Sequence record: SRR22947727_475
Reading direction: 5' to 3' (one strand)
DNA length: 34,822 nucleotides
Shown here: positions 18,544 through 32,269 of the stretch, piece after piece
Layout of the letters: each line of letters opens with the position of its first letter
Position numbering within the stretch: the first letter of the stretch is position 1
Notes under the pieces: generated by a model
The model's input: the letters and a program-made list of their open reading frames with translations, nothing else
What the model was told of the DNA's origin: nothing
The model's database searches: none
Translations under genes and position numbers: made by a program

Positions 18544-19492
18544 TAGATTTTTCAGTTCTAAAAAAATTAAAGAAACTTAAAGTTGCGACTGCGCAAAGTA
18601 AATGCCAAACCATATGTGCCTGTAGCCATGAATCTGGTTCACACCATGGATGTTCTGGAACACCAGTTTCCCAGATAATAAGCGCTCCAAAGAATGAAGC
18701 AACACCAATAAAGAACCATGGAGTGTACTTTCTTTTAGTACCTTTTTTTAAATTAGGAATTAATGCTGGAATAAAATATAAAAACATCTCCCAGTTTTCT
18801 TGTATGTTCTGCATAGAATCAATAACCGGACTACCAAATAGTTGTTGAGTTAATAAGACAGTTAAACCAGAAAGTAGTCTCCCATAAATATTTGGCATCT
18901 TTACCAGTACCTCAGTTGCAATCCATAAACCAATACTAAGTTCAAATAAGTCAACACCAATCCCTAATCCGCTATCAAGATACCAATAGCTATAGGCGTA
19001 ATATGCTAATAGAGTTAAATATGTTATGAAGAATGACTGTGAAGAGAATTTTGTAAGTTTTTTTAAGTTATAAATCCACAAAATAAGAACATAAGAAATC
19101 ATTGATACATTGTCTAACCACGCGCCAAATCTAGTATGAGTTCCATGCATAGCCATTGAAGCTGGTCCTAAAAAGGTTGAGGCTGAGGCATAAAGAAGAG
19201 CAATCTTGAATGATCCAAATAGAGGGGTATTTCCCTGTGTTGCATCTTTTGAAAGTCTGAAAAACATATACAAGCCGACAACTACAAATCCTAAGTTTCC
19301 TAAGGTATTAGCTGGTTCTCTAAAGAATCCACTACTTACACGTTCACACCACCTAGAAACCTCACCAATAGCTTGTTCATTTTCTGCTGCTGGTCCCCAG
19401 CCGTTATAACCAAAGAATGCAAAGAGTAAAAATGTAGTGAAAATACTTATTAAAGCAAGTGAGAAAGGATTAAGTTTATTTCTTTGCAGCAT
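18533..19492 (-). CDS. Ceramidase-like (CREST superfamily) membrane hydrolase
   Basis: WCE...EPANTLGN, SMAMH...D, HMVWH metal-binding pattern; multiple TM segments. Confidence 0.8.
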   Translation of the reverse strand: MLQRNKLNPFSLALISIFTTFLLFAFFGYNGWGPAAENEQAIGEVSRWCERVSSGFFREPANTLGNLGFVVVGLYMFFRLSKDATQGNTPLFGSFKIALLYASASTFLGPASMAMHGTHTRFGAWLDNVSMISYVLILWIYNLKKLTKFSSQSFFITYLTLLAYYAYSYWYLDSGLGIGVDLFELSIGLWIATEVLVKMPNIYGRLLSGLTVLLTQQLFGSPVIDSMQNIQENWEMFLYFIPALIPNLKKGTKRKYTPWFFIGVASFFGALIIWETGVPEHPWCEPDSWLQAHMVWHLLCAVATLSFFNFFRTEKSIKA

Positions 19493-20642: not shown

Positions 20643-20733
20643 AAAAAGAGTTTAAGACTTATTGAGACAATTGGTAGAAAAATACTATTTTTTTACCTTG
20701 TTGATTCAGCGAAAAGCTTTTAATTTAAATAAT

Positions 20734-21159
20734 ATGATTAAAAAAATATACATTGCAGGACCACTTTTTAACGTACATGAAAAAAAATACCTTGAAGATA
20801 TAGCAGAAGTTCTAGAGGGTGCTGATTTCGATTGTTTTTTGCCCCATAGAGATCAAACAGGTATAGATCCAGAAGAATTAAAGAATAATGAAATGTCACA
20901 AGAAACTAAAGACATTATTTTTCAAACTGATATTGAAGCTTTGAAAGAAGCTGATTTAATAGTTGCTTTAGTAACCGGTCAAGATATAGATTCAGGAACG
21001 GCATCCGAAATAGGATTTATGTACGCTAGCAACAAACCCGTAATTGCAATTACTGCTGAAGAACGCAGATACAGAAATTTATTTACTGCAGGTATGTTCA
21101 CCAAAACAGTACATAATATCCAAGAAGTATTGTCATCAGTAGAGCAATTTAATTCTTAG
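20734..21159 (+). CDS. Nucleoside 2-deoxyribosyltransferase / nucleotide N-glycosidase family protein
   Basis: IYIAGPLF, FLPHRD, DI..L..AD, DSGTASEIG (catalytic Glu). Start placed at ATG 20734. Confidence 0.87.
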   Translation: MIKKIYIAGPLFNVHEKKYLEDIAEVLEGADFDCFLPHRDQTGIDPEELKNNEMSQETKDIIFQTDIEALKEADLIVALVTGQDIDSGTASEIGFMYASNKPVIAITAEERRYRNLFTAGMFTKTVHNIQEVLSSVEQFNS

Positions 21160-22503: not shown

Positions 22504-22540
22504 CAAAAACATGCAAACTTAATAATTTAAGTTTTGTAAT

Positions 22541-22577
22541 CGATGTTTAATAGGATAACCTTCGTAAAAAAACCTGG
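22541..22577 (+). ncRNA. preQ1-I-like riboswitch aptamer, copy 1
   Basis: Stem CGAUG/CUUCG (one U-U), loop UUUAAUAGGAUAAC, A-rich tail UAAAAAAACCUGG. Loop UAGG can pair with tail CCUG (H-type pseudoknot). Preceded by hairpin AAACUUAA/UUAAGUUU (22515-22534). Lies about 20 nt before the ECF ATPase. Confidence 0.72.
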
Positions 22578-22598
22578 ATTTTTAAAAAAGGGGTGTAC

Positions 22599-23429
22599 AT
22601 GTCCATTATTAAAATTGAAGATCTTACAGTTCAATATTTAGAACAAGAGGAAAATGCCTTAGATAAAATCTCTCTCGAAGTAGAAGAAGGTGAGTTTGTA
22701 GCTATTCTAGGGGCTCATGGTGCTGGAAAGACAACCCTCTGTTTATCAATAAATGGAATAGTCCCAAATATGATAAATGCTGATATGTTTGGAAAAATAG
22801 AAGTCGCGGGAGAAATTCCACCTAACATTCCAGTCAGAGAGCTTGCAAGCAAAGTTGGGAGTGTTTTTGATAATCCGGAATTTCAAATGAGTCAACTCAC
22901 CGTTTTTGAAGAAGTTGCACTTGGCTTACAAAATCTAGGCGTCGATAAAGACACGATAATTGAAAATATAACGACATCATTAGAATTAGTTGGACTTGCA
23001 GGATTTGAAGAGAGATCACCTTTTGAAATCTCAGGAGGTCAACAGCAAAGACTTGCGATGGCATCAGCTCTTTCAATGAAGCCACAGATTTTGGTACTTG
23101 ATGAGCCAACATCTAATCTTGATCCCATAGGAAAAGAAGAAGTCTTTACAGTAACTAGGAAAATAAACCAGGAAGAAGGATTAACTGTCATAATTGCAGA
23201 ACACGAGGTTGAAGTAATTGCCGAGTATGCAGACAAAGTTATTTTATTAGAACAGGGTAAAATTACCCAAGTAGGGACTCCTGAAGAGCTATTTCCAAAT
23301 ATTGTAGATATCCAAAGTAATGTAGGTGTAAGAATTCCCCAGATTACAGATTTCGCATCACGGGTTCCAGATAAATTTACAGGTAGTATTCCAGTTACTG
23401 TTGACAAAGCTATAGAAAGGTATAACTAA
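22599..23429 (+). CDS. ECF transporter ATPase (A component)
   Basis: GAHGAGKT, VFDNPEFQ, ISGGQQQR, VLDEPTSNLDP. ATG 22599 follows SD AAGGGG. Confidence 0.92.
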   Translation: MSIIKIEDLTVQYLEQEENALDKISLEVEEGEFVAILGAHGAGKTTLCLSINGIVPNMINADMFGKIEVAGEIPPNIPVRELASKVGSVFDNPEFQMSQLTVFEEVALGLQNLGVDKDTIIENITTSLELVGLAGFEERSPFEISGGQQQRLAMASALSMKPQILVLDEPTSNLDPIGKEEVFTVTRKINQEEGLTVIIAEHEVEVIAEYADKVILLEQGKITQVGTPEELFPNIVDIQSNVGVRIPQITDFASRVPDKFTGSIPVTVDKAIERYN

Positions 23430-24238
23430 TGAGTGGAACAGATATTAAATGTATCAAAGTTGGACATACTTACCCAAATGGAGTTCAGGCAATCAAGGAT
23501 GTCGACGTAACAATTAAACAAGGCGAGATAGTATCGGTAGTTGGTCAAAATGGTTCAGGTAAAACGACACTAGTTAAACATTTCAATGGATTACTCAAAC
23601 CAACAGATGGAGACATTACTGTAGGAGATCTCAACACTAGAGATAATCCAGTAGGTTTACTTGCCGAGAGCGTAGGTTATGTATTCCAGAATCCCAATCA
23701 CCAAATATTCGCTGCCTCAGTCCACGAAGAGTTATCTTTTGGTCTGAAAAATATTGGATTGGAAGACTCTGAGATTGAAAAAAAAGTTAAAGAAATAGCA
23801 GAAGAGTTTTTATTAACGGAGTATTTGGAGTTAAATCCCTATCGTCTAGGCTTTTCCCTGAGAAAAACAGTAGGCATGGCATCAATAATAGCTATGGAGC
23901 CTAATGTTGTAATTTTGGATGAACCCACCACAGGTCAGGATTTTTCTGGAGTTAAGACCATTAAAGATTCTATGACAAAGCTTAAAGGTGAAGGAAAAAC
24001 AGTTATAGTTGTTTCTCATGACATGCCATTAGTTGCTGAAGACACAGATAGAGTCCTTGTAATGTGTAATACTGAGTTAATATTTGACGGTCCGCCAGCT
24101 GATTTGTTTATAAATAAACCTATATTAGAAAAGACTAATTTGAAACCTCCTCAAATAACTGCATTTGCCGAGGCCAAAAATTTTGGTAATAATAAAAAAG
24201 CTATACTTTCAGTAGAAGACGCTCTCAAACACGTATAA
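23429..24238 (+). CDS. ECF transporter ATPase (A' component) with degenerate signature motif
   Basis: GQNGSGKT, VFQNPNHQIF, ILDEPTTGQD, VSHD; signature region reads LGFSLRK. TAATG overlap with the A gene. Confidence 0.92.
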   Translation: MSGTDIKCIKVGHTYPNGVQAIKDVDVTIKQGEIVSVVGQNGSGKTTLVKHFNGLLKPTDGDITVGDLNTRDNPVGLLAESVGYVFQNPNHQIFAASVHEELSFGLKNIGLEDSEIEKKVKEIAEEFLLTEYLELNPYRLGFSLRKTVGMASIIAMEPNVVILDEPTTGQDFSGVKTIKDSMTKLKGEGKTVIVVSHDMPLVAEDTDRVLVMCNTELIFDGPPADLFINKPILEKTNLKPPQITAFAEAKNFGNNKKAILSVEDALKHV

Positions 24239-24378: not shown

Positions 24379-24414
24379 ACGATGTTTATTAGGTAACCAC
24401 CGTAAAAAAACCTG
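24379..24414 (+). ncRNA. preQ1-I-like riboswitch aptamer, copy 2 (first of a tandem pair)
   Basis: Stem ACGAUG/CACCGU (one A-C), loop UUUAUUAGGUAAC, tail AAAAAAACCUG; UAGG/CCUG pseudoknot. Very similar to copy 1. Confidence 0.75.
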
Positions 24415-24451
24415 ACGGTGTTTGTAAAGGTTCCACCGTAAAAAAAACTAA
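24415..24451 (+). ncRNA. preQ1-I-like riboswitch aptamer, copy 3 (second of a tandem pair)
   Basis: Perfect stem ACGGUG/CACCGU, loop UUUGUAAAGGUUC, tail AAAAAAAACUAA resembling the classic preQ1-I 3' tail. Confidence 0.72.
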
Positions 24452-24489: not shown

Positions 24490-25179
24490 GTGAAAGACCA
24501 AGATACTTCACAAAGACTAAGCAGCGCTACAGGCGGCGGTGTTCCATTAACTTACGTGATTGCGTTAGTACCAGTTGCTTCCGTTTTGAACGTAATTGGA
24601 GGAACCGTAGCTGGTGCGCTTAAATTACCCATATTCCTAGATATGATCGGAACAGCAGTAGTTGCTATGACGATCGGTCCTTGGTGGGGAGCACTTGTTG
24701 GAGTTATAACTAACGTAACAAGCGGGTTCATTACTGGACCAGTATCAATTCCATTTGCAGCGTGTAACGTTGTTGGAGCATTGATTTGGGGATATGGAAC
24801 TAAATGGGGTTGGGCAAATGACAAGCTAAAATTCTTTGGATTGTCAGTGGCTTCAGCCGTAGGCGTTTCGTTAATGGCAGCACCAATAGTTATATTTGTG
24901 TTCGGAGGTGCAACAGGTCACGCATCTGATGTTCTTACTGCAGGTTTAATTGCAGCAGGAGGAGATATGTGGACTTCAGTATTCTCAAGTAACATAATTG
25001 TTTCTTCAGCTGATAAAATTCTTTCGTCATTCTTGGCGTTAGCAATAATTGGAGCACTACCTACTAATTTGCAGGTAACTGGACCAATTATGAAAGCTGA
25101 AAACATGGGTAAAGCTGTCTTGATTACAGCAGGTACAGTTGTAGGAGTCATTCTTACAGTCGTATCTATGAACCTATAG
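24490..25179 (+). CDS. ECF transporter S component, QrtT/STY3230-like (queuosine-regulated ECF type)
   Basis: LNVIGG..LKLPIFLDMIGT..GPWWGALVG..TN..FGGATG..D..ADKIL matches my recollection of the QrtT family. Has an extra C-terminal TM. GTG start after SD GAAGGGGGGA. Confidence 0.82.
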   Translation: MKDQDTSQRLSSATGGGVPLTYVIALVPVASVLNVIGGTVAGALKLPIFLDMIGTAVVAMTIGPWWGALVGVITNVTSGFITGPVSIPFAACNVVGALIWGYGTKWGWANDKLKFFGLSVASAVGVSLMAAPIVIFVFGGATGHASDVLTAGLIAAGGDMWTSVFSSNIIVSSADKILSSFLALAIIGALPTNLQVTGPIMKAENMGKAVLITAGTVVGVILTVVSMNL

Positions 25180-25191
25180 GAGGTAGATAGT

Positions 25192-25383
25192 ATGAGAGAA
25201 GTAACATCTAAAGATGGTCTTGGTGCTGGTATTGTCGGCCTTGGTGTAATGTATATGGTTTATCCATATGCAGCGTCGGAGTTAGCTCCGGATGCATCAT
25301 TCGGAACACTAGCAGGAATGTGCTTAGTAGCTGGTTTCCTCACAGTATTGTGTGGAATAGCTGTTATTAGATTCAAAGACTAA
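25192..25383 (+). CDS. 63-aa two-TM small membrane protein in the ECF operon
   Basis: Strong SD AGGAGGT; two Gly-rich hydrophobic helices; tight spacing to both neighbours. Confidence 0.75.
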   Translation: MREVTSKDGLGAGIVGLGVMYMVYPYAASELAPDASFGTLAGMCLVAGFLTVLCGIAVIRFKD

Positions 25384-25399
25384 AAGAAAGTATTTAATT

Positions 25400-26140
25400 A
25401 TGTTCGACAATAAAGTTGAGCAGGTTAAACACTTACCCTTGAAGATCGACGAGGTTGCCCGGTATGTAATAGTACCGGGCGATCCAAACAGGGTTGAAAT
25501 TATTGCTTCGGTTTTTGACGAATATAAACTCCAGGGAAGCAATAGAGAGTTTAACGCTGCAAGAGGAACTTATAAAGGTACAGATGTATCTGTAGTTTCA
25601 ACAGGAATAGGATGTCCATCAACAGCCATTGCAGTTGAAGAGTTAGCTTATATCGGCGCAGAGGTCTTTGTTAGAATTGGCACTTCTGGATCCGTTGACA
25701 ACTCAGTAAAAAAAGGAGATATTTTCATTGCTACAGGTGCAGTTAGAGATGACGGCACTTCTAAACAATACATACCAATAGAATTTCCAGCAATAGCCGA
25801 CTTTGAATTGGTAACAAACTTAATAAAAGCAGCAAAAGATTTAAATATTAAATCTAAGGTTGGAATTTGTCAGTCAAAGGATTCATTTTTTGGAGAGGTT
25901 GAGCCAGAAAGAATGCCAGTTGCACCCTATCTAGATAACAAATGGAAAGCTTGGCAAAAAGGAGGAGTTGGTGCGTCTGAAATGGAGGCAGCCACTTTAT
26001 TTACGGTAGCCCAAATAAGGAAATTAAAAGCTGGAGCAGTATTAGCTGTAGAAGTTTCAGATGAGGAAACTGTAAAAAAAATGACAAAAATTGTTTTAGA
26101 ATGTATAAATATTATGGAAAGGGATAGAAGAAATGAGTAA
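25400..26140 (+). CDS. Nucleoside phosphorylase (NP-I, uridine-phosphorylase-like), paralogue 1
   Basis: VPGDPNRV, NREF, STGIGCPSTAIAVEEL, RIGTSG, SKDSFFGE, SEMEAA. Confidence 0.9.
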   Translation: MFDNKVEQVKHLPLKIDEVARYVIVPGDPNRVEIIASVFDEYKLQGSNREFNAARGTYKGTDVSVVSTGIGCPSTAIAVEELAYIGAEVFVRIGTSGSVDNSVKKGDIFIATGAVRDDGTSKQYIPIEFPAIADFELVTNLIKAAKDLNIKSKVGICQSKDSFFGEVEPERMPVAPYLDNKWKAWQKGGVGASEMEAATLFTVAQIRKLKAGAVLAVEVSDEETVKKMTKIVLECINIMERDRRNE

Positions 26141-26924
26141 AAAAGAAAAAGGCGGTCTTTTAAAAAGCGAAATTCAATATCACATTCAAATGAAAAAAGG
26201 TGATGTTGCAGATTTCGTTATATTACCTGGTGACCCTGGAAGAGTCGAGTTTATTGCCGATCACTTTGATACAGCAAAAGTTGTTGCTGATAACAGGGAA
26301 TATAAGACAATGACTGGAAAGTATAAAGGAAGATCTATCTCAGTAACATCAACAGGAATAGGCTGTCCTTCAACAGCTATTGCGGTTGAGGAGTTGGCAA
26401 ACATAGGTGCGAAAACATTTGTAAGGATGGGAACGTCTGGCGCAATGCAAGACTTCACAAGAGTAGGAGATAAAGTTATTGCTACAGGTGCTGTTAGGTT
26501 TGAGGGAACGTCAGTTCAATATATGCCAATAGAATTTCCTGCTGTGGCCTCTCACGAAATGGTAACAGCGTTGGTTCGCTCAGCATCTGATGCTAAATTA
26601 AATTATCACACTGGAATAGTTCAATCTAAAGATTCTTTTTATGGACAACATAGTCCAGAAGATATGCCTATAGCTCAAGAATTATTACAAAAATGGGATG
26701 CTTGGGTAAAAGGTGGAGTCCTCTGTTCGGAGATGGAAGCAGCTACTTTATTTGTAGTTGGATCATATAGAAAACTTCGTACAGGTGCGGTTTTATTAGT
26801 TGCTGGAGACCAAGCAAAAGGAGAGTCTTTAACAAAAGAAGATTATCAGCAAAATATGACAGAATCAATAAACATGATATTAGAAGCAAGTTTGGATATA
26901 GAGGAGGAAAGTAGTAATGGCTAG
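26133..26924 (+). CDS. Nucleoside phosphorylase (NP-I, uridine-phosphorylase-like), paralogue 2
   Basis: LPGDPGRV, NREY, STGIGCPSTAIAVEEL, RMGTSG, SKDSFYGQH, SEMEAA; 8-nt overlap with paralogue 1. Confidence 0.92.
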   Translation: MSKKEKGGLLKSEIQYHIQMKKGDVADFVILPGDPGRVEFIADHFDTAKVVADNREYKTMTGKYKGRSISVTSTGIGCPSTAIAVEELANIGAKTFVRMGTSGAMQDFTRVGDKVIATGAVRFEGTSVQYMPIEFPAVASHEMVTALVRSASDAKLNYHTGIVQSKDSFYGQHSPEDMPIAQELLQKWDAWVKGGVLCSEMEAATLFVVGSYRKLRTGAVLLVAGDQAKGESLTKEDYQQNMTESINMILEASLDIEEESSNG

Positions 26925-27816
26925 AGTACCTGTAGGAGCTTATGTTCCAGGAGATTCATTTTTCCATAAAGCACACCCATTTGTTAAATTTTACTGGGTT
27001 CTTTCATTTGTATTTTTTTGTTTCTTGAATAAGAATCCGTACATAAATTATGCATTGACTGCTATAGGATTAATTTTTGTCGTTCTTGCAAAAACTTTTC
27101 CCAGCTACATAAGATCAATGGTTATATTTGGACCAGCTGCTTTTGCTATGATTTTCTTGCAGTCTATTGTACCCCCTGCAGTTTTTGATAACCCCCAGTA
27201 CTTGGCAGATTTAGGACCCTTTTCACTCTATACAGAGTCAATAATTTATGGAATGGTGTTTAGTAGTAGAATTTTGTGTATTTGTACTTGGTCTATATTG
27301 ATGCTGATGACTCTGCATCCCGGAGAACTATCATCAGCGCTTCAGAGAGCCAAGGTACCATACACCGTAAACTTTATGATTACCACGACTCTGCAGTTAA
27401 TTCCTATCCTTCAAAGGGAATTTGGAATAATTTTATCTGCTCAGAAGTCAAGAGCAATGAAAGCTCAAGGATTTAAAGCATTACTACCAAGTATCATTCC
27501 TGTTTTTGCCGGTGCTATTGATAGAGTTCAGCAATTATCTATGAGTTTAGAGACAAGAGCATTTGGATCAGAGAATGAAAGAACTCTCTTGAGATACAAA
27601 ACATTTACAAGCAAAGAAATTGCTCTATCAATTGCAGCTTTAGTTCCAGTTGGTTTAAGCATTTATGGAAGGATTAGTTTAAATGGTTTTGCACCTAGCG
27701 GGGGATTTACGTTATCCCCACAAGTAGGAGTATTCCTTGTTGGGTTTTGTGGTCTTGCATTTCTTTCAATAATCTTTGGTGCTGGAATAGCGATAAGACT
27801 TTTTGGCAAAAAGTAA
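26917..27816 (+). CDS. ECF transporter transmembrane T component
   Basis: YVPGDSFFHKAHP.VK and two coupling Arg motifs (AQKSRA, LETRAF). Confidence 0.92.
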   Translation: MARVPVGAYVPGDSFFHKAHPFVKFYWVLSFVFFCFLNKNPYINYALTAIGLIFVVLAKTFPSYIRSMVIFGPAAFAMIFLQSIVPPAVFDNPQYLADLGPFSLYTESIIYGMVFSSRILCICTWSILMLMTLHPGELSSALQRAKVPYTVNFMITTTLQLIPILQREFGIILSAQKSRAMKAQGFKALLPSIIPVFAGAIDRVQQLSMSLETRAFGSENERTLLRYKTFTSKEIALSIAALVPVGLSIYGRISLNGFAPSGGFTLSPQVGVFLVGFCGLAFLSIIFGAGIAIRLFGKK

Positions 27817-27825
27817 TAAACTTAA

Positions 27826-29100
27826 TTGATTAATACTCAAGATTTTATTAAAAAAAATTATGTATTCAATTACTGTATGTTCATATTTGATGCAATCGGA
27901 TTTGGATCAGCGTTTGCATTATTAATTCCAGGAAGTTATTTGCCAGATGTAGCAATAGCTATTTCTGACAAATGGTATACACCTTCATTAATTGTAATTA
28001 TTTTTTATGCGGTAGGTATTTTTTCACAATTTCTCACATCTGCAAGAAGAAATAAAGAGCAAGACTCAAAAAGAGGAGTCATTTTCTGGGGTATTTGCGA
28101 GAGAATTGGAATAATTGTTTTAGCCTTAACTTTAAGCAGCTATTCAAAAACTGATATGGGATTTATTTTTTTTGTTGTAGCGTATATAGTTTTTGTATTT
28201 AGCGCTGGTGCAATTCTTCCTTCATATTTTGACCTTGTTTCTCGTGTACTTTATAAATTTCGATCGGTATTTTTTGCATTAAATTTAACTTTTGGCTCCG
28301 CTGCAGGCTATTTAGTTTCTAGATATGTTGATTTTAAAATATTAGAAAACGGCTTAATAGAAGGTTATTTATCCGGACTAATTCTGGTAATAGCTGTTAC
28401 CTCTCTCTCTATGATCCCTCTTTTCTTAATTCGAGAACCTCAAACGGGTAATAAGCCTACAACAAAACTTTCAATAACCTCATTAAGTGCTCAGATAAAG
28501 GTGTGGAAAGAAACTTATAAAAATAATGTAGGTTTGAATGCGGTCTCCTTATCTAACTTTTTTAGTGCCGTACCAGAGGCGATTACTCCATTTTTTAGTA
28601 TTTGGTTAATTAGTTTTCACAACATACCAACAAACAGATTAGGTATGTGGGTGACATTTTTATTATTAAGTCAAAGCATTGGAAGCTTCTTCGTTCCAAT
28701 TATAGGGATCAAAATTGGCTTCAAGTACACATACATACTTGGGCTAGGCATGCACTTTATAGCTAGCGCAATATTTATTCTTACAGATTCAACTTTTCAG
28801 AATCTGATATTTATATTTGCAGGTCTTGGACTTGGGATCTTTAACACCTCGCAAAGTAACTTAGCTGTAGAGTTGGGAGATGTTGGAGATGCCGGCAACA
28901 CTAACGCAATGCTTACTGCTTTCAGAGTTCCAATCTTTATCTCGGTTCCATTATTAGTTGGTTTTTTTAACTCAAGTAGTTCCATTTTTTTAATTTTATT
29001 ATTTTCAATGAGTTCAGCAATCATTGGTATCTTGATAGTCGCTTTTAAATTAACAGATCCTGTTCTACCAAAAGTTAGATTTTGGCTCAAAGATTCTTAA
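27826..29100 (+). CDS. MFS-type transporter
   Basis: 424 aa, about 12 hydrophobic segments in two halves; TTG start 9 nt after ecfT. Confidence 0.78.
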   Translation: MINTQDFIKKNYVFNYCMFIFDAIGFGSAFALLIPGSYLPDVAIAISDKWYTPSLIVIIFYAVGIFSQFLTSARRNKEQDSKRGVIFWGICERIGIIVLALTLSSYSKTDMGFIFFVVAYIVFVFSAGAILPSYFDLVSRVLYKFRSVFFALNLTFGSAAGYLVSRYVDFKILENGLIEGYLSGLILVIAVTSLSMIPLFLIREPQTGNKPTTKLSITSLSAQIKVWKETYKNNVGLNAVSLSNFFSAVPEAITPFFSIWLISFHNIPTNRLGMWVTFLLLSQSIGSFFVPIIGIKIGFKYTYILGLGMHFIASAIFILTDSTFQNLIFIFAGLGLGIFNTSQSNLAVELGDVGDAGNTNAMLTAFRVPIFISVPLLVGFFNSSSSIFLILLFSMSSAIIGILIVAFKLTDPVLPKVRFWLKDS

Positions 29101-29375: not shown

Positions 29376-30248
29376 TTAAGCCTTATAAGAAGACTGAGTT
29401 CCAGTTCTTGTAACCGAATCGCTTGCTTTTTGTATTCCCAGAGATATTGATTCCTCTGGTGACTCTCCTGAAGCTAGTCCAAAAGCAAAAGCACCAACAA
29501 AAGCATCACCAGCTCCAGTTGTATCAATAGCAGTAACATGCGGAGCTGATATTTTTACCACAGAATTTTCCGAAACCAATGCAGCTCCATTTTCTCCAAG
29601 AGTAACAATTAAATTAGATGAAATTGTATTGGCATAGGAGATTAAGTTTTCATCGTTATAAGCATCCATTCCAGTAATTGTTGAAAACTCAACCTCATTT
29701 GGTACAAACCAATCTGTTAATTGCAGTAATTCATCTGAGGGAATTTTTGCTGGTGCTGGGTTGAGAATTGTTGTAATGTCATTATTTTTTGCAACGGAAA
29801 ACACTTCCTGAGTAACACTCATAGGTATTTCAAATTGGCCAATTAATACATTCAAATTTCCTATTTCTAAAAGTGAAGATGCAGCTTTTTTTGCATCAAT
29901 TTTATCATTTGCTCCAGAGACTACAATTATTCTATTTTGTCCGGACTGGTCAACCCAAATTGGTGCGACACCACTTGAACCATCTACTCTTTGAATATGT
30001 TCTACATTTACACCACATTTGATGTAATTATCAATTGTCATATCTGCATAAACATCATCACCAAGGCATGTAATCATGAAAGTTTCAGCACCTAACAGTC
30101 CAGCCATTACAGCTTGATTGGCACCCTTACCACCAAAACCCATTTGATAAGAATTACCAAAAACAGTTTCTCCGTCTGACGGTATTGTTTCTACGTAGGA
30201 AATTTGGTCAATATTGGAGCTTCCAACTACACATATTTTAGGATTCAT
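29376..30248 (-). CDS. rbsK: Ribokinase (PfkB family)
   Basis: VVGSSNID, GGKGANQA, GQNRI, NPAPA, PNEVE, VTLGENG, DTTGAGDAF. Second ATG (30248) lies 6 nt after a TATAAT. Confidence 0.9.
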   Translation of the reverse strand: MNPKICVVGSSNIDQISYVETIPSDGETVFGNSYQMGFGGKGANQAVMAGLLGAETFMITCLGDDVYADMTIDNYIKCGVNVEHIQRVDGSSGVAPIWVDQSGQNRIIVVSGANDKIDAKKAASSLLEIGNLNVLIGQFEIPMSVTQEVFSVAKNNDITTILNPAPAKIPSDELLQLTDWFVPNEVEFSTITGMDAYNDENLISYANTISSNLIVTLGENGAALVSENSVVKISAPHVTAIDTTGAGDAFVGAFAFGLASGESPEESISLGIQKASDSVTRTGTQSSYKA

Positions 30249-30251
30249 CAT

Positions 30252-30297: not shown

Positions 30298-31281
30298 ATG
30301 GATATTGACTGGGATGCAAGAGTATTAAGTTCCCTTGATCCTGTTGTCAGCAACCTTAAAGAAGTCCAAATAAATAATCAGGAAATTGAAAATGTTGCTG
30401 ATTGGCTTGCATATGAAGAATTTCCCTCGCCTGAAAATAATAAAACACAAAAAAATCCTGAGGAAGTAATTAGAACAACACTTCTTATAAATACTCTTAA
30501 TTTTGCATTTACTGATTTTGAAAAAAGTGTTAAATATGAAATTGAACGTGATGGTTATATTTTTTCAGATAGTGAGGCTATGTTTACACAAATAAATGAG
30601 GCACTTGCATCTGGCGTAAAGCTTTATGATGGTGAGGTACTTTCATCTTTAGACATGGACAAATTGAATAAAATATTTTCTGGAAATATTGAAATGCCAA
30701 TGATGAATGAGAGGTTGGAAATATTAAATGAAGTCGGAGAAAAATTATCCTCTGAATATAAAGGGGATTGGATTAACTTTATAAATCAAGGCCCCAAGAA
30801 ATTGTACAGTAATGGCGAGGGTTTAATTGAAAGATTAATTACAGAATTTCCAAGATTTGATGATAAGACAATCCTTGAAGATGGACATGAAGTTCATTTT
30901 TATAAATTAGCTCAATTGGCTTTTTGGGGAATTCATGGAGAACTTTCTGGAGCAGGCCATTTTGTGGTTGAAGATATGCATAAAATGAGTGCATTTGCAG
31001 ATTACATTGTCCCTGTTGCCCTAGAAGTAATGAAAATTATTACATATTCAGAAGCATTAAATAATAAAATCATGAATGGTGAGATTATAGAGAGGGATTC
31101 ACAAGAAGAGGTTGAAATTAGAGCTGTGAGTTTATACACAACAGCAAAGCTTACTGAAGAAGTTAATAAAAGAAGACCATTAGACAAACAAATAATAATC
31201 CCTCAACTCGATTACAGATTATGGAAACAATATCATGCTACACATAGACCTCATCACCTAACAGTTACAACGATGTACTAA
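30298..31281 (+). CDS. qng1: Queuosine-nucleotide N-glycosylase/hydrolase (Qng1, DUF2419, Q_salvage)
   Basis: LNFAF, FPRFDD, FYKLAQL, FADYIVP (catalytic Asp), EVEIRA, LDYRLW, C-terminal PHH.T.T.Y. Confidence 0.9.
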   Translation: MDIDWDARVLSSLDPVVSNLKEVQINNQEIENVADWLAYEEFPSPENNKTQKNPEEVIRTTLLINTLNFAFTDFEKSVKYEIERDGYIFSDSEAMFTQINEALASGVKLYDGEVLSSLDMDKLNKIFSGNIEMPMMNERLEILNEVGEKLSSEYKGDWINFINQGPKKLYSNGEGLIERLITEFPRFDDKTILEDGHEVHFYKLAQLAFWGIHGELSGAGHFVVEDMHKMSAFADYIVPVALEVMKIITYSEALNNKIMNGEIIERDSQEEVEIRAVSLYTTAKLTEEVNKRRPLDKQIIIPQLDYRLWKQYHATHRPHHLTVTTMY

Positions 31282-31282
31282 T

Positions 31283-32269
31283 TTGAAAAAGTTTATTATA
31301 GACGCAGATACAGGCTCAGATGATGCTGTAGCTATATTATTAGCACTCCAAGATCCTTCAATCGAAATTTTGGGAATATCAGTCGTATCAGGAAATGTTC
31401 CATTACAACAAGGAATTAAAAATACTATTTCAACAATGGACATGACTGGAAAAAAAGTAAAAGTATTTGCTGGTGCGGATAAGCCACTAACAAGAGAGTA
31501 CGAAGAGGTATATGTACTAGAGAAATTTATGGATCATGTTAAATCATTAAAATCTAGCTCTGCAAGTGGTCAGTGTGTTCATGGTATAGACGGAATGGGT
31601 GATATAGGTATAGAGTCTTCGACAGAAGAGTATGAAGAGAAAAATGCAATAGACTTCATAATAGATACAGTTAATGAAAATCCTAATGAGGTAACACTTG
31701 TAACTCTTGGGCCACTAACAAATATAGCTCTAGCAATACAAAAAGATTCATCAATATCAAAAAAAATAAAACATTGTTATGTAATGGGAGGCACCTCTGA
31801 TGGGACAGGTAATGTATCAGCTGCAGCAGAATATAACATCTGGGTGGACCCAGAAGCTGCAAAAATATGCTTTGATTCAGGCATGAATATAACAATGGTG
31901 GGTTGGGACAATTCCTATAAATACGCGATGCTTAAAGAAGAGGAGATTGAAGATTTGAGATCTCTAAACAGTAAGCTAGCTGATTTTTCAGTTGATATTC
32001 AAAAAACACTAATTGACCTAACTTTTACAACCTACGGCTTTCATGGATTTGACTTACCTGATCCCATCACTATGGCTATTGCTTTAGATAATTCAATTAT
32101 TGAAGACTCTGAGCAGTTACACGTAATAGTCGACACTAGAGATGGTATTACTAGAGGACAAACAATAGTTGATTATTTTAACGTAGAAGAAAAAAATCAG
32201 AACATAAGAGTTGTAACAAAGTCAGATAAAGATAAATTTATGAATTTATTAACAAAATCTTTAAAGTAA
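31283..32269 (+). CDS. Nucleoside hydrolase (IU-NH family)
   Basis: DADTGSDDAVA, SGNV, VHGIDG, LGPLTNIA, MGG, AEYNIWVDPEAA, LPDP; starts 1 nt after the qng1 stop. Confidence 0.93.
   Translation: MKKFIIDADTGSDDAVAILLALQDPSIEILGISVVSGNVPLQQGIKNTISTMDMTGKKVKVFAGADKPLTREYEEVYVLEKFMDHVKSLKSSSASGQCVHGIDGMGDIGIESSTEEYEEKNAIDFIIDTVNENPNEVTLVTLGPLTNIALAIQKDSSISKKIKHCYVMGGTSDGTGNVSAAAEYNIWVDPEAAKICFDSGMNITMVGWDNSYKYAMLKEEEIEDLRSLNSKLADFSVDIQKTLIDLTFTTYGFHGFDLPDPITMAIALDNSIIEDSEQLHVIVDTRDGITRGQTIVDYFNVEEKNQNIRVVTKSDKDKFMNLLTKSLK

Follow-up and report, generated by a model that had tools for sequence, protein, structure and literature searches.

A uridine phosphorylase paralogue with an altered base pocket in the operon of an ECF importer from Actinomarina-like marine bacteria

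What does a marine bacterium with a streamlined genome gain from two overlapping genes for uridine phosphorylase-like proteins in the middle of a transporter operon, and do both proteins act on uridine? The genes lie in a stretch of 34,822 nucleotides (nt) from sequence record SRR22947727_475 (we call this whole stretch the window), which is DNA of a Candidatus Actinomarina-like marine actinobacterium. We compared it with its nearest genome, G001 (92% complete), and with further relatives, whose genomes are about 1.1 Mb in size. The two proteins, Udp1 (25400..26140, + strand; 246 amino acids) and Udp2 (26133..26924, + strand; 263 amino acids), are encoded between the genes for the S component (EcfS, the substrate-binding subunit) and the transmembrane component (EcfT) of an energy-coupling factor (ECF) importer. 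Udp2 looks like an ordinary uridine phosphorylase. Our best explanation for Udp1, to which we give a probability of roughly 0.4 on the basis of sequence comparisons, is that its specificity has been switched and that it would cleave an ECF-imported nucleoside with a base other than uracil, most likely one with a guanine-type edge.

Both proteins belong to the nucleoside phosphorylase I (NP-I) superfamily (PF01048; 138.3 bits for Udp1 and 134.4 bits for Udp2, against a gathering cut-off of 25.1), and they are 56% identical to each other (127 of 226 positions, E = 4e-88). The nearest solved relative of both is the uridine phosphorylase of Streptococcus pyogenes, 3qpb (E = 1.1e-62 for Udp1 and 5.5e-74 for Udp2). 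Each paralogue carries the N-terminal His that serves the neighboring subunit (H11 in Udp1 and H17 in Udp2, aligned with the His of E. coli Udp), the phosphate-binding arginines, and the motifs GDPxR, N-R-E, R-x-G-T-S-G, and E-M-E, the last of which binds ribose. In our alignments (A1 and A4), conservation is complete or at least 90% for R31, R49, R92, G94, E194, M195, and E196. Udp (b3831) and DeoD (b4384) of E. coli share the fold as well as the motifs for phosphate and ribose (alignment A1). Udp1 is about 42% identical to E. coli Udp (MAFFT) and 31.5% identical to the DeoD type (tblastn), and it scores well below the cut-offs of the models for DeoD-type purine nucleoside phosphorylases (PNPs): 132.7 bits versus 230 for NF004489 and 109 bits versus 232.25 for TIGR00107. 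Furthermore, Udp1 keeps the insertion after the FY motif that is specific to uridine phosphorylases, so it is not a DeoD-type enzyme. We also considered D221 of Udp1 as the counterpart of the catalytic Asp204 of DeoD. This candidate was dropped, as the alignments either place Asp204 at the column of Asn222 of E. coli Udp (which holds S220 in Udp1 and the Asp of GDQ in Udp2) or are left ambiguous by a deletion. G001 has no PF01048 member beyond the Udp1/Udp2 pair and thus no separate PNP or methylthioadenosine phosphorylase was found there; the genomes G003–G005 have a third PF01048 member.

Udp2 is the canonical member of the pair. It passes the equivalog model for uridine phosphorylase (TIGR01718; 296.1 bits, with a cut-off of 280.3), it has the full gate loop, and its segment SKDSFYGQH preserves the whole 'KDxFYGQH' pattern of the S. 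pyogenes enzyme, whose Lys, Gln, and His we take to be contacts to uracil in 3qpb. It departs from 3qpb in having 'AGDQ' opposite 'VGNQ' (Asp for Asn). From these features, we predict with good confidence that Udp2 acts as an ordinary uridine phosphorylase and belongs to the S. pyogenes subclass.

Udp1 differs from Udp2 and from 3qpb in several features of the base pocket. Its segment reads SKDSFFGEV: K160 is kept, Glu-Val (E166-V167) replaces Gln-His, and F164 replaces Tyr. (Below, we refer to proteins with these alternatives as Glu-type and Gln-His-type.) A Lys (K10) stands in place of the aromatic residue that precedes the N-terminal His. The gate loop, or lid, between the last strand and the C-terminal helix is 11 residues shorter than in Udp2 or E. 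coli Udp, and in an AlphaFold2 model of Udp1 (pLDDT 96.8), the strand 210-217 is linked to the helix 222-245 by E218-V-S-D221 alone. In a Foldseek search, 3qpb is again the best match of Udp1 (TM-score 0.94), and it is the closest fold for both paralogues, with 43–46% identity. On TIGR01718, Udp1 falls short of the cut-off, with 263.3 bits, and the match stops at residue 224, so that it does not reach the C-terminal part of this model.

These features are not sequencing noise or chance, because K10, K160, F164, E166, E218, and D221 are invariant in all 11 distinct orthologues of Udp1. Residue 167 varies (Val in seven of these proteins and Thr in four). Altogether, 33 alignment columns (30 substitutions and three deletion columns) separate the 11 Udp1 sequences from 28 sequences of the Udp2 type, including K10 versus Tyr, F164 versus Tyr, and E166 versus Gln. 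Purifying selection acts on both genes: among pairs with dS < 0.6, dN/dS is 0.097, 0.073, and 0.130 for Udp1 (three pairs) and 0.02–0.06 for Udp2. The preliminary description of this DNA had reported two uridine phosphorylase paralogues inside a transporter operon, with the phosphate and ribose residues kept in both, KDSFYGQH together with GDQ in the second, and FFGEV with about a dozen lid residues missing in the first. Our comparisons bear out each of these statements.

Which genomes carry Udp1? Among 301 genomes of the class, 123 have Udp-like genes (an unpublished genome, G259, is counted here, but none of our conclusions depends on it), and within the genus, 52 of 64 genomes had a match. 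Udp1 orthologues (72–88% identity) are present in nine genomes (G001, G022, G086, G166, G190, G234, G250, G254, and G258). EcfS is present in 9 of the 65 genomes of the family (Actinomarinaceae), and these are exactly the nine with Udp1. The 21 loci from other species of the genus each have a single Gln-His-type Udp, which is about 70% identical to Udp2, and they lack both ECF genes and Udp1. The gene order in these loci is CGL (a gene for a pyridoxal phosphate-dependent enzyme of Cys/Met metabolism), a cytochrome P450, Udp, a PfkB-family kinase, and Qng1, with the P450 in all 21, PfkB in 20, and Qng1 in 13. Therefore, Udp1 goes with the importer, and the ordinary Udp goes with PfkB and Qng1. 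Two contigs with Udp1-like genes (L002 and L010; 90% and 72% identity to Udp1) are filed under metagenome-assembled genomes that are labeled as archaea. This label is probably due to contamination during binning. A search of a phylum of small-genome archaea, reached through two loci with an archaeal label, gave 6 of 251 hits.

A second phylum has the same combination of genes. Starting from a related locus in Chloroflexota (L013, with the order Udp(QH), TenA, Udp(EV)), we searched 301 genomes of that phylum, found a match in 63, and extracted ten regions. Four of the ten (L079–L082) hold a homologous ECF system, whose proteins are 47–63% (EcfS), 45–55% (EcfA), and 38–40% (EcfT) identical to those in the window. 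All four have a Glu-type Udp inside the ECF operon (with GEM, GEV, GEV, and GEI, respectively) as well as a Gln-His-type, and three of the four also have Qng1, a PfkB kinase, and a P450. In L079, the genes for S, A, A, and T are followed by three tandem Udp genes (GQH, GQM, and GEM) and a major facilitator superfamily (MFS) gene. L080 and L081 have a P450, Udp(GEV), and then EcfT-A-A-S, followed by Qng1 (E = 2e-48 and 5e-51), an MFS gene, an IunH-type nucleoside hydrolase, Udp(GQH), and PfkB; here, the two types of Udp are 7 kb apart and in different operons. In L082, the order is S-A-A-T, Udp(GQH), Udp(GEI), and P450, with Qng1 and PfkB close by. The P450 proteins are 35% identical between the phyla and lie beside Udp genes in three of the four loci (L080:7964-9214, L081:3874-5259, and L082:10730-11971). 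The Glu-types of these loci have 261–288 amino acids where they were called at full length (the one in L081 has 248, but its start is uncertain), and the gate loop is long in L081 and L082, the two in which this region was inspected. Given that the gene order differs between the phyla and that identities are just 35–63%, the module is old, rearranged, and kept together, rather than recently transferred.

How special is the Glu-type pocket within the family? We sampled the 150 best representatives at 50% identity and counted the 136 that have at least 200 amino acids. At the column of E166 of Udp1, 45 have Glu and 45 have Gln; 'EV' is found in 11 and 'QH' in 36. On a tree of 52 rows (LG+C20), the Glu/Gln label requires nine changes. 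Glu thus recurs at this position within the S. pyogenes-type clade, in which the Lys is retained. GEV, which had been put forward as the mark of a subfamily, does not define a special one, and Glu has several origins. On the same tree, the ECF-linked Glu-type of each lineage is nearest to the Gln-His-type of its own lineage, with support of 98/87 and 97/97 for two groups of Chloroflexota and 81/92 for Actinomarina. A tree in which the 10 ECF-linked Glu-types are constrained to a single clade is worse by 70.5 log-likelihood units (p = 0.017 in the approximately unbiased test; this group was named after the tree had been seen). Either the change from Gln to Glu happened independently at least three times, or gene conversion homogenizes the paralogues while selection keeps the pocket residues apart. 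Under both scenarios, the island needs one enzyme of each kind. What the ECF-linked Glu-types have in common is the change from Gln to Glu plus the replacement of His by Val, Ile, Met, or Thr; nothing else is shared.

Both the switch in specificity and the tie to the importer therefore seem well supported by the comparisons of sequences. We consider Udp1 to be catalytically competent because its catalytic residues are kept, its predicted fold is intact, and its dN/dS is low; that it is active, that its substrate is not uridine, and which kind of base it takes are all inferred. The proposed switch would replace Gln by Glu, His by Val or Thr, and the cross-subunit aromatic by Lys, and it would delete the gate loop so that E218 and D221 are left. 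Udp1 would phosphorolyse the nucleoside that the importer brings in, yielding the free base and ribose-1-phosphate, and Udp2, the IunH-type hydrolase, the PfkB kinase, and the Qng1-like enzyme would process different nucleosides and nucleotides within this scavenging island. The Gln and His that were lost are presumably the residues that read N3/O2 and O4 of uracil in the E. coli and S. pyogenes structures. With a carboxylate in place of an amide and with the His donor gone, the pocket would suit a base that offers hydrogen-bond donors, which is why we propose a guanine-type edge, as in guanosine or a 7-deazaguanine riboside. The N1-H/N2-H2 edge of guanine is usually read by a carboxylate, which acts as the acceptor of both hydrogen bonds, and D298 of Qng1 reads it in this manner.

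There is a precedent for a change of this kind. The haloarchaeal protein Hlac_2318 ('Urdpase1') is annotated as a uridine phosphorylase but prefers guanosine; like Udp1, it belongs to the Udp family, is one of two Udp paralogues in its genome, and is encoded in an operon with a PfkB-family kinase (PMC9700705). That operon is described there as serving a pentose-bisphosphate pathway with a ribose-1,5-bisphosphate isomerase (PMC9700705), whereas no such isomerase was seen in the window, and the PfkB protein of the window has weak scores against ribose-1-phosphate kinase models (74.6–98 bits, versus cut-offs of 330–500). A tblastn search of the PLSDB plasmids gave no haloarchaeon among the matches listed (60 of 93 records), and judging by composition, none of the 150 family representatives is of haloarchaeal type. 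The listings of our literature searches contained no link between ECF importers and uridine phosphorylases.

The recurrent replacement of Gln-His by Glu and a hydrophobic residue, beside a copy that stayed as it was and within the same island of importer and nucleoside enzymes, makes the Udp1/Udp2 pair of these abundant, streamlined marine bacteria a testable case for the evolution of specificity in nucleoside phosphorylases. It also implies that the substrate may differ among the thousands of database entries for 'uridine phosphorylase.' Should the cargo turn out to be guanosine or uridine, the island would still be a compact model of nucleoside scavenging in oligotrophs.

Several observations weigh against a switch to a new base. 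The co-occurrence of Udp1 and the importer in Actinomarina is probably a single evolutionary event, as the Udp2 proteins of the ECF-bearing genomes form one clade. K10, E218/D221, and the lid deletion are confined to Actinomarina. Glu at position 166 is both common (45 of 136) and prone to flip (nine changes across 52 rows), and it may be compatible with the cleavage of uridine: we take the essential contact of the S. pyogenes enzyme to be that of Lys162 with O2, and this Lys matches K160 of Udp1. Also, all four of the Chloroflexota Glu-type singletons that we examined lie outside of any island with ECF or Qng1 genes. Three of the four (L083, L085, and L088) directly adjoin a gene for a hydrolase of the haloacid dehalogenase (HAD) family, as a housekeeping enzyme might, and this arrangement hints at a possible nucleotidase–phosphorylase pair.

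These points bring up the alternative that Udp1 is another pyrimidine nucleoside phosphorylase, isofunctional or nearly so (acting on uridine, thymidine, or, for example, 5-methyluridine), and that the pair raises the capacity or the pyrimidine range of a general nucleoside-scavenging island whose products are ribose phosphates and bases. We regard this as possible but doubtful. K160, the counterpart of the S. pyogenes lysine, is retained, and a Glu should still be able to serve as an acceptor for the N3-H of uracil; changes between Glu and Gln are frequent on the tree, the Glu-type singletons are the sole Udp-like genes in their loci, Udp1 still reaches 263 bits on the uridine phosphorylase model, and the island has a ribokinase-like gene and a general IunH-type hydrolase, which fit a broad scavenging role. 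But if the two states were interchangeable, it is hard to see why one Glu-type beside one Gln-His-type would be retained in parallel in at least three lineages, with strong purifying selection on Udp1. It would also be a large change, if the substrate stayed the same, to lose both the His donor and the gate loop and to exchange the base-capping aromatic for a Lys. Alternatively, Udp1 might not be an independent enzyme. The overlap of the two genes in the window led to the suggestion that the two proteins form a hetero-oligomer; NP-I active sites include residues from a neighboring subunit, and the cross-subunit cap residue of Udp1 is altered (K10 versus Tyr). In its strict form, this would be an obligate hetero-hexamer with Udp1 as a regulatory or pocket-completing subunit, which is unlikely, and we give it the least credence of the explanations discussed here. 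The overlap is not conserved (the genes are separated by 16–28 nt in L004, L007, and L011); in two of the four Chloroflexota loci (L080 and L081), the two types are encoded by separate operons 7 kb apart; L079 has three paralogues; both proteins retain all of the catalytic and cross-subunit residues (His and Arg49); and the Udp2 type stands alone in the 21 ECF-less loci. Only slightly better placed, and still very improbable, is a transglycosylation couple in which Udp2 makes ribose-1-phosphate from uridine, Udp1 ribosylates an imported base, and PfkB phosphorylates the product. Pairs of uridine phosphorylase and PNP do transglycosylate in vitro, and the PfkB kinase is conserved beside the Gln-His-type Udp. 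However, the island lacks a phosphoribosyl or nucleotide-consuming step for such a product, tRNA-guanine transglycosylase (TGT) requires a base and not a nucleoside, and the ECF-less relatives keep Udp2 and PfkB without Udp1.

A more specific version of the guanine-edge idea is that Udp1 phosphorolytically cleaves imported queuosine (Q) or another 7-deazaguanine riboside (preQ1 or preQ0 riboside, or archaeosine) and thereby feeds queuine or preQ1 to TGT. We think that this is rather unlikely, although much of its context is in place. Qng1, an IunH/QueK-family hydrolase, and PfkB adjoin the operon and recur in three of the four Chloroflexota ECF loci. When we looked for Q genes (in genomes that included G001, G003–G005, G010, G016, G032, G037, and G042), TGT turned up in all 10 genomes searched for it and QueA in all four; there was no match for QueF in four genomes or for the transporter QPTR (PF02592) in five, and QueC searches gave only partial PP-loop matches. 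(The TGT match in G042, at G042:C4:112171-113217, has one in-frame TGA.) With TGT and QueA present and QueF and QPTR not found, a Q precursor must be imported, and the genus appears to depend on it; no known family of Q-precursor importers was found in the genomes that were checked for Q genes. The Glu of Udp1 could engage N1-H and N2-H2 in the manner of D298 of Qng1. Judging by the geometry of the E. coli enzyme, the 7-aminomethyl substituent would project toward the site of the missing lid and of the acidic E218/D221. On the other hand, 7-deazapurines lack N7, the lid loss is absent from the other ECF-linked Glu-types, and the island already has two types of enzyme that are able to release the base. 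Qng1 (13 of 21) and PfkB (20 of 21) stay with the Gln-His-type Udp in the ECF-less loci, which leaves the Q-family gene without a specific tie to the Glu-type. The proposal that Glu-types co-occur with Q genes and qng1 thus stands in part: the link to a Qng1 island is real and recurs in a second phylum, but Qng1 also accompanies the ordinary Udp, and the four singletons lie outside such islands. The wider queuosine reading of the preliminary description fares similarly, in that the Qng1 link and the need for a Q precursor speak for it, while the restriction of the lid loss to Actinomarina and the tie of Qng1 to the ordinary Udp speak against it.

The queuine salvage routes of Clostridioides difficile (QueK, QueL, and QrtT) and of Qng1 use hydrolases and not phosphorylases (PMC11130926, PMC9881137). 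Common to both settings is an ECF importer beside base-releasing enzymes in an organism that does not synthesize preQ1, and the island has an IunH-family hydrolase and a Qng1-family protein. The EcfS of the window is not a QueT or QrtT protein (its best model is the CD3073 family, under the cut-off), and no radical-SAM enzyme QueL was seen in the window. One idea is that the P450 would convert queuine to preQ1 by oxidative N-dealkylation and thus be the oxygen-tolerant equivalent of QueL. Putting these elements together, we can imagine an aerobic Q-salvage island in which the ECF system would import the nucleoside; the Glu-type Udp would cleave queuosine or preQ1 riboside, with the base stabilized via the Lys and the carboxylate rather than by protonation of N7; PfkB would be the queuosine kinase for Qng1; and the P450 would dealkylate queuine to preQ1 for TGT and QueA. 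This full scheme is speculative, and we consider it improbable. If the cargo is a 7-deazaguanine nucleoside, then the island would supply several pieces that queuosine salvage still lacks, namely an importer, a kinase, and an oxygen-tolerant route to preQ1, and it would reveal the source of this tRNA micronutrient for marine bacteria that are unable to make it. None of the items in our literature search listings linked Actinomarina with queuosine salvage or queuosine with nucleoside phosphorylases, and we found no paper that names a 'queuosine kinase' or 'CD3073.'

If the operon is involved in queuosine salvage, its leaders might respond to preQ1. Two adjacent candidate H-type pseudoknots with a layout like that of preQ1-I riboswitches lie in the leader of EcfS (24379-24415 and 24415-24451, + strand), and a third, similar copy, whose P1 has one mismatch, lies in the leader of EcfA1 (22540..22577, + strand). 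The elements combine a P1 of six base pairs with an L1 rich in U, the sequence 'UAAC', an L3 rich in A, and a P2 formed by pairing with the loop. Across 13 units, P1 is 93.6% paired, and two pairs have changed on both sides. The motif is restricted to ECF loci, with two per locus in five genomes, none elsewhere, and none in a reversed control; homologous copies are found upstream of EcfA1 in L003, L004, L005, and L012. This architecture favors a role in queuosine salvage, but the pseudoknots do not score as PreQ1: the best match to the Rfam family in the window (24411-24451) has 14.8 bits (E = 1.6), versus a gathering score of 39, and the unit in L004 has no match. The motif was not detected in L007–L011, and none of the Chloroflexota leaders that we inspected has a pseudoknot (the leader of L079 has at most a loose look-alike, and those of L080 and L082 have none). 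With the gathering thresholds of Rfam, the window has no match to any family, and among the ECF leaders of seven loci there were no matches other than glycine riboswitches in L081. No preQ1 riboswitch, the proposed partner of the Glu-types, reaches the threshold. (The glycine riboswitches of L081 form a tandem at 18914-19126, – strand, with 58.1 and 38 bits, and are unrelated to the island.)

The Qng1-family (DUF2419) protein of the window is encoded at 30298..31281, + strand (PF10343, E = 6.8e-51). Aligned with the Qng1 of S. thermophilus (7uk3, E = 1e-30), it keeps the catalytic residues and the residues that contact 7-deazaguanine (K199, D231, Y232, D298, W302, and the C-terminal Tyr are aligned), but it lacks the residues of the cyclopentenediol pocket (W48, H53, Y93, and W94), which counts against queuosine as the cargo. 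Its substrate may carry a different 7-substituent or none, if these residues are a guide. The kinase that makes Q-5'-phosphate for Qng1 has been called unidentified (PMC9881137). The PfkB-family (ribokinase-like) kinase, which is divergently transcribed from Qng1 (29376..30251, – strand; PF00294, E = 2.2e-59; 295.2 bits on TIGR02152, slightly under the cut-off of 299.65), is a candidate for this role. In a Chloroflexota genome (L013:14674-16464, – strand, and L048), there are two open reading frames of about 600 amino acids, each with a weak Q_salvage-like domain; the one in L013 (24 bits) is fused to PfkB.

The remaining genes complete the picture of the island. The operon is tightly spaced on the + strand, in the order EcfA1, EcfA2, a gap of 250 nt, EcfS, a protein of 63 amino acids, Udp1, Udp2, EcfT, and an MFS-like protein, with overlaps of 8 nt both between Udp1 and Udp2 and between Udp2 and EcfT. 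The two ATPases, EcfA1 and EcfA2 (22593-23429 and 23429-24238, + strand), match PF00005 and the models TIGR04520 and TIGR04521 (212–234 bits). EcfS (24490..25179, + strand) is a weaker match to its families: PF12822 gives E = 8.2e-6 and 26.4 bits, under the cut-off of 30.7, and the best NCBIfam model, NF045596 ('CD3073 family'), gives 109.5 bits, under the cut-off of 180. The predicted membrane protein of 63 amino acids that follows it (25192..25383, + strand) has no match in Pfam or NCBIfam, but it is kept after EcfS in 12 loci from Actinomarinales and is 33–40% identical to its counterparts in the four Chloroflexota loci. This small protein may serve as an additional subunit of the importer. 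EcfT (26917..27816, + strand) matches PF02361 (E = 1.7e-24). The final gene of the operon (27826..29100, + strand) encodes the MFS-like membrane protein (PF07690, E = 1.7e-5, under the cut-off), which is syntenic in loci of Actinomarinales; a further MFS transporter gene is also near the operon. Downstream of Qng1 is the IunH-type nucleoside hydrolase (31283..32269, + strand; PF01156, E = 1.8e-89), from the family that includes QueK; its best NCBIfam match is UriH (211.7 bits, under the cut-off of 450). The cytochrome P450 (21167..22411, – strand; PF00067, E = 7e-32) flanks the island on the other side. Next to it is a gene of the nucleoside 2-deoxyribosyltransferase family (20662-21159; PF05014, E = 8.7e-25), which is syntenic with the P450 in most loci of Actinomarinales.

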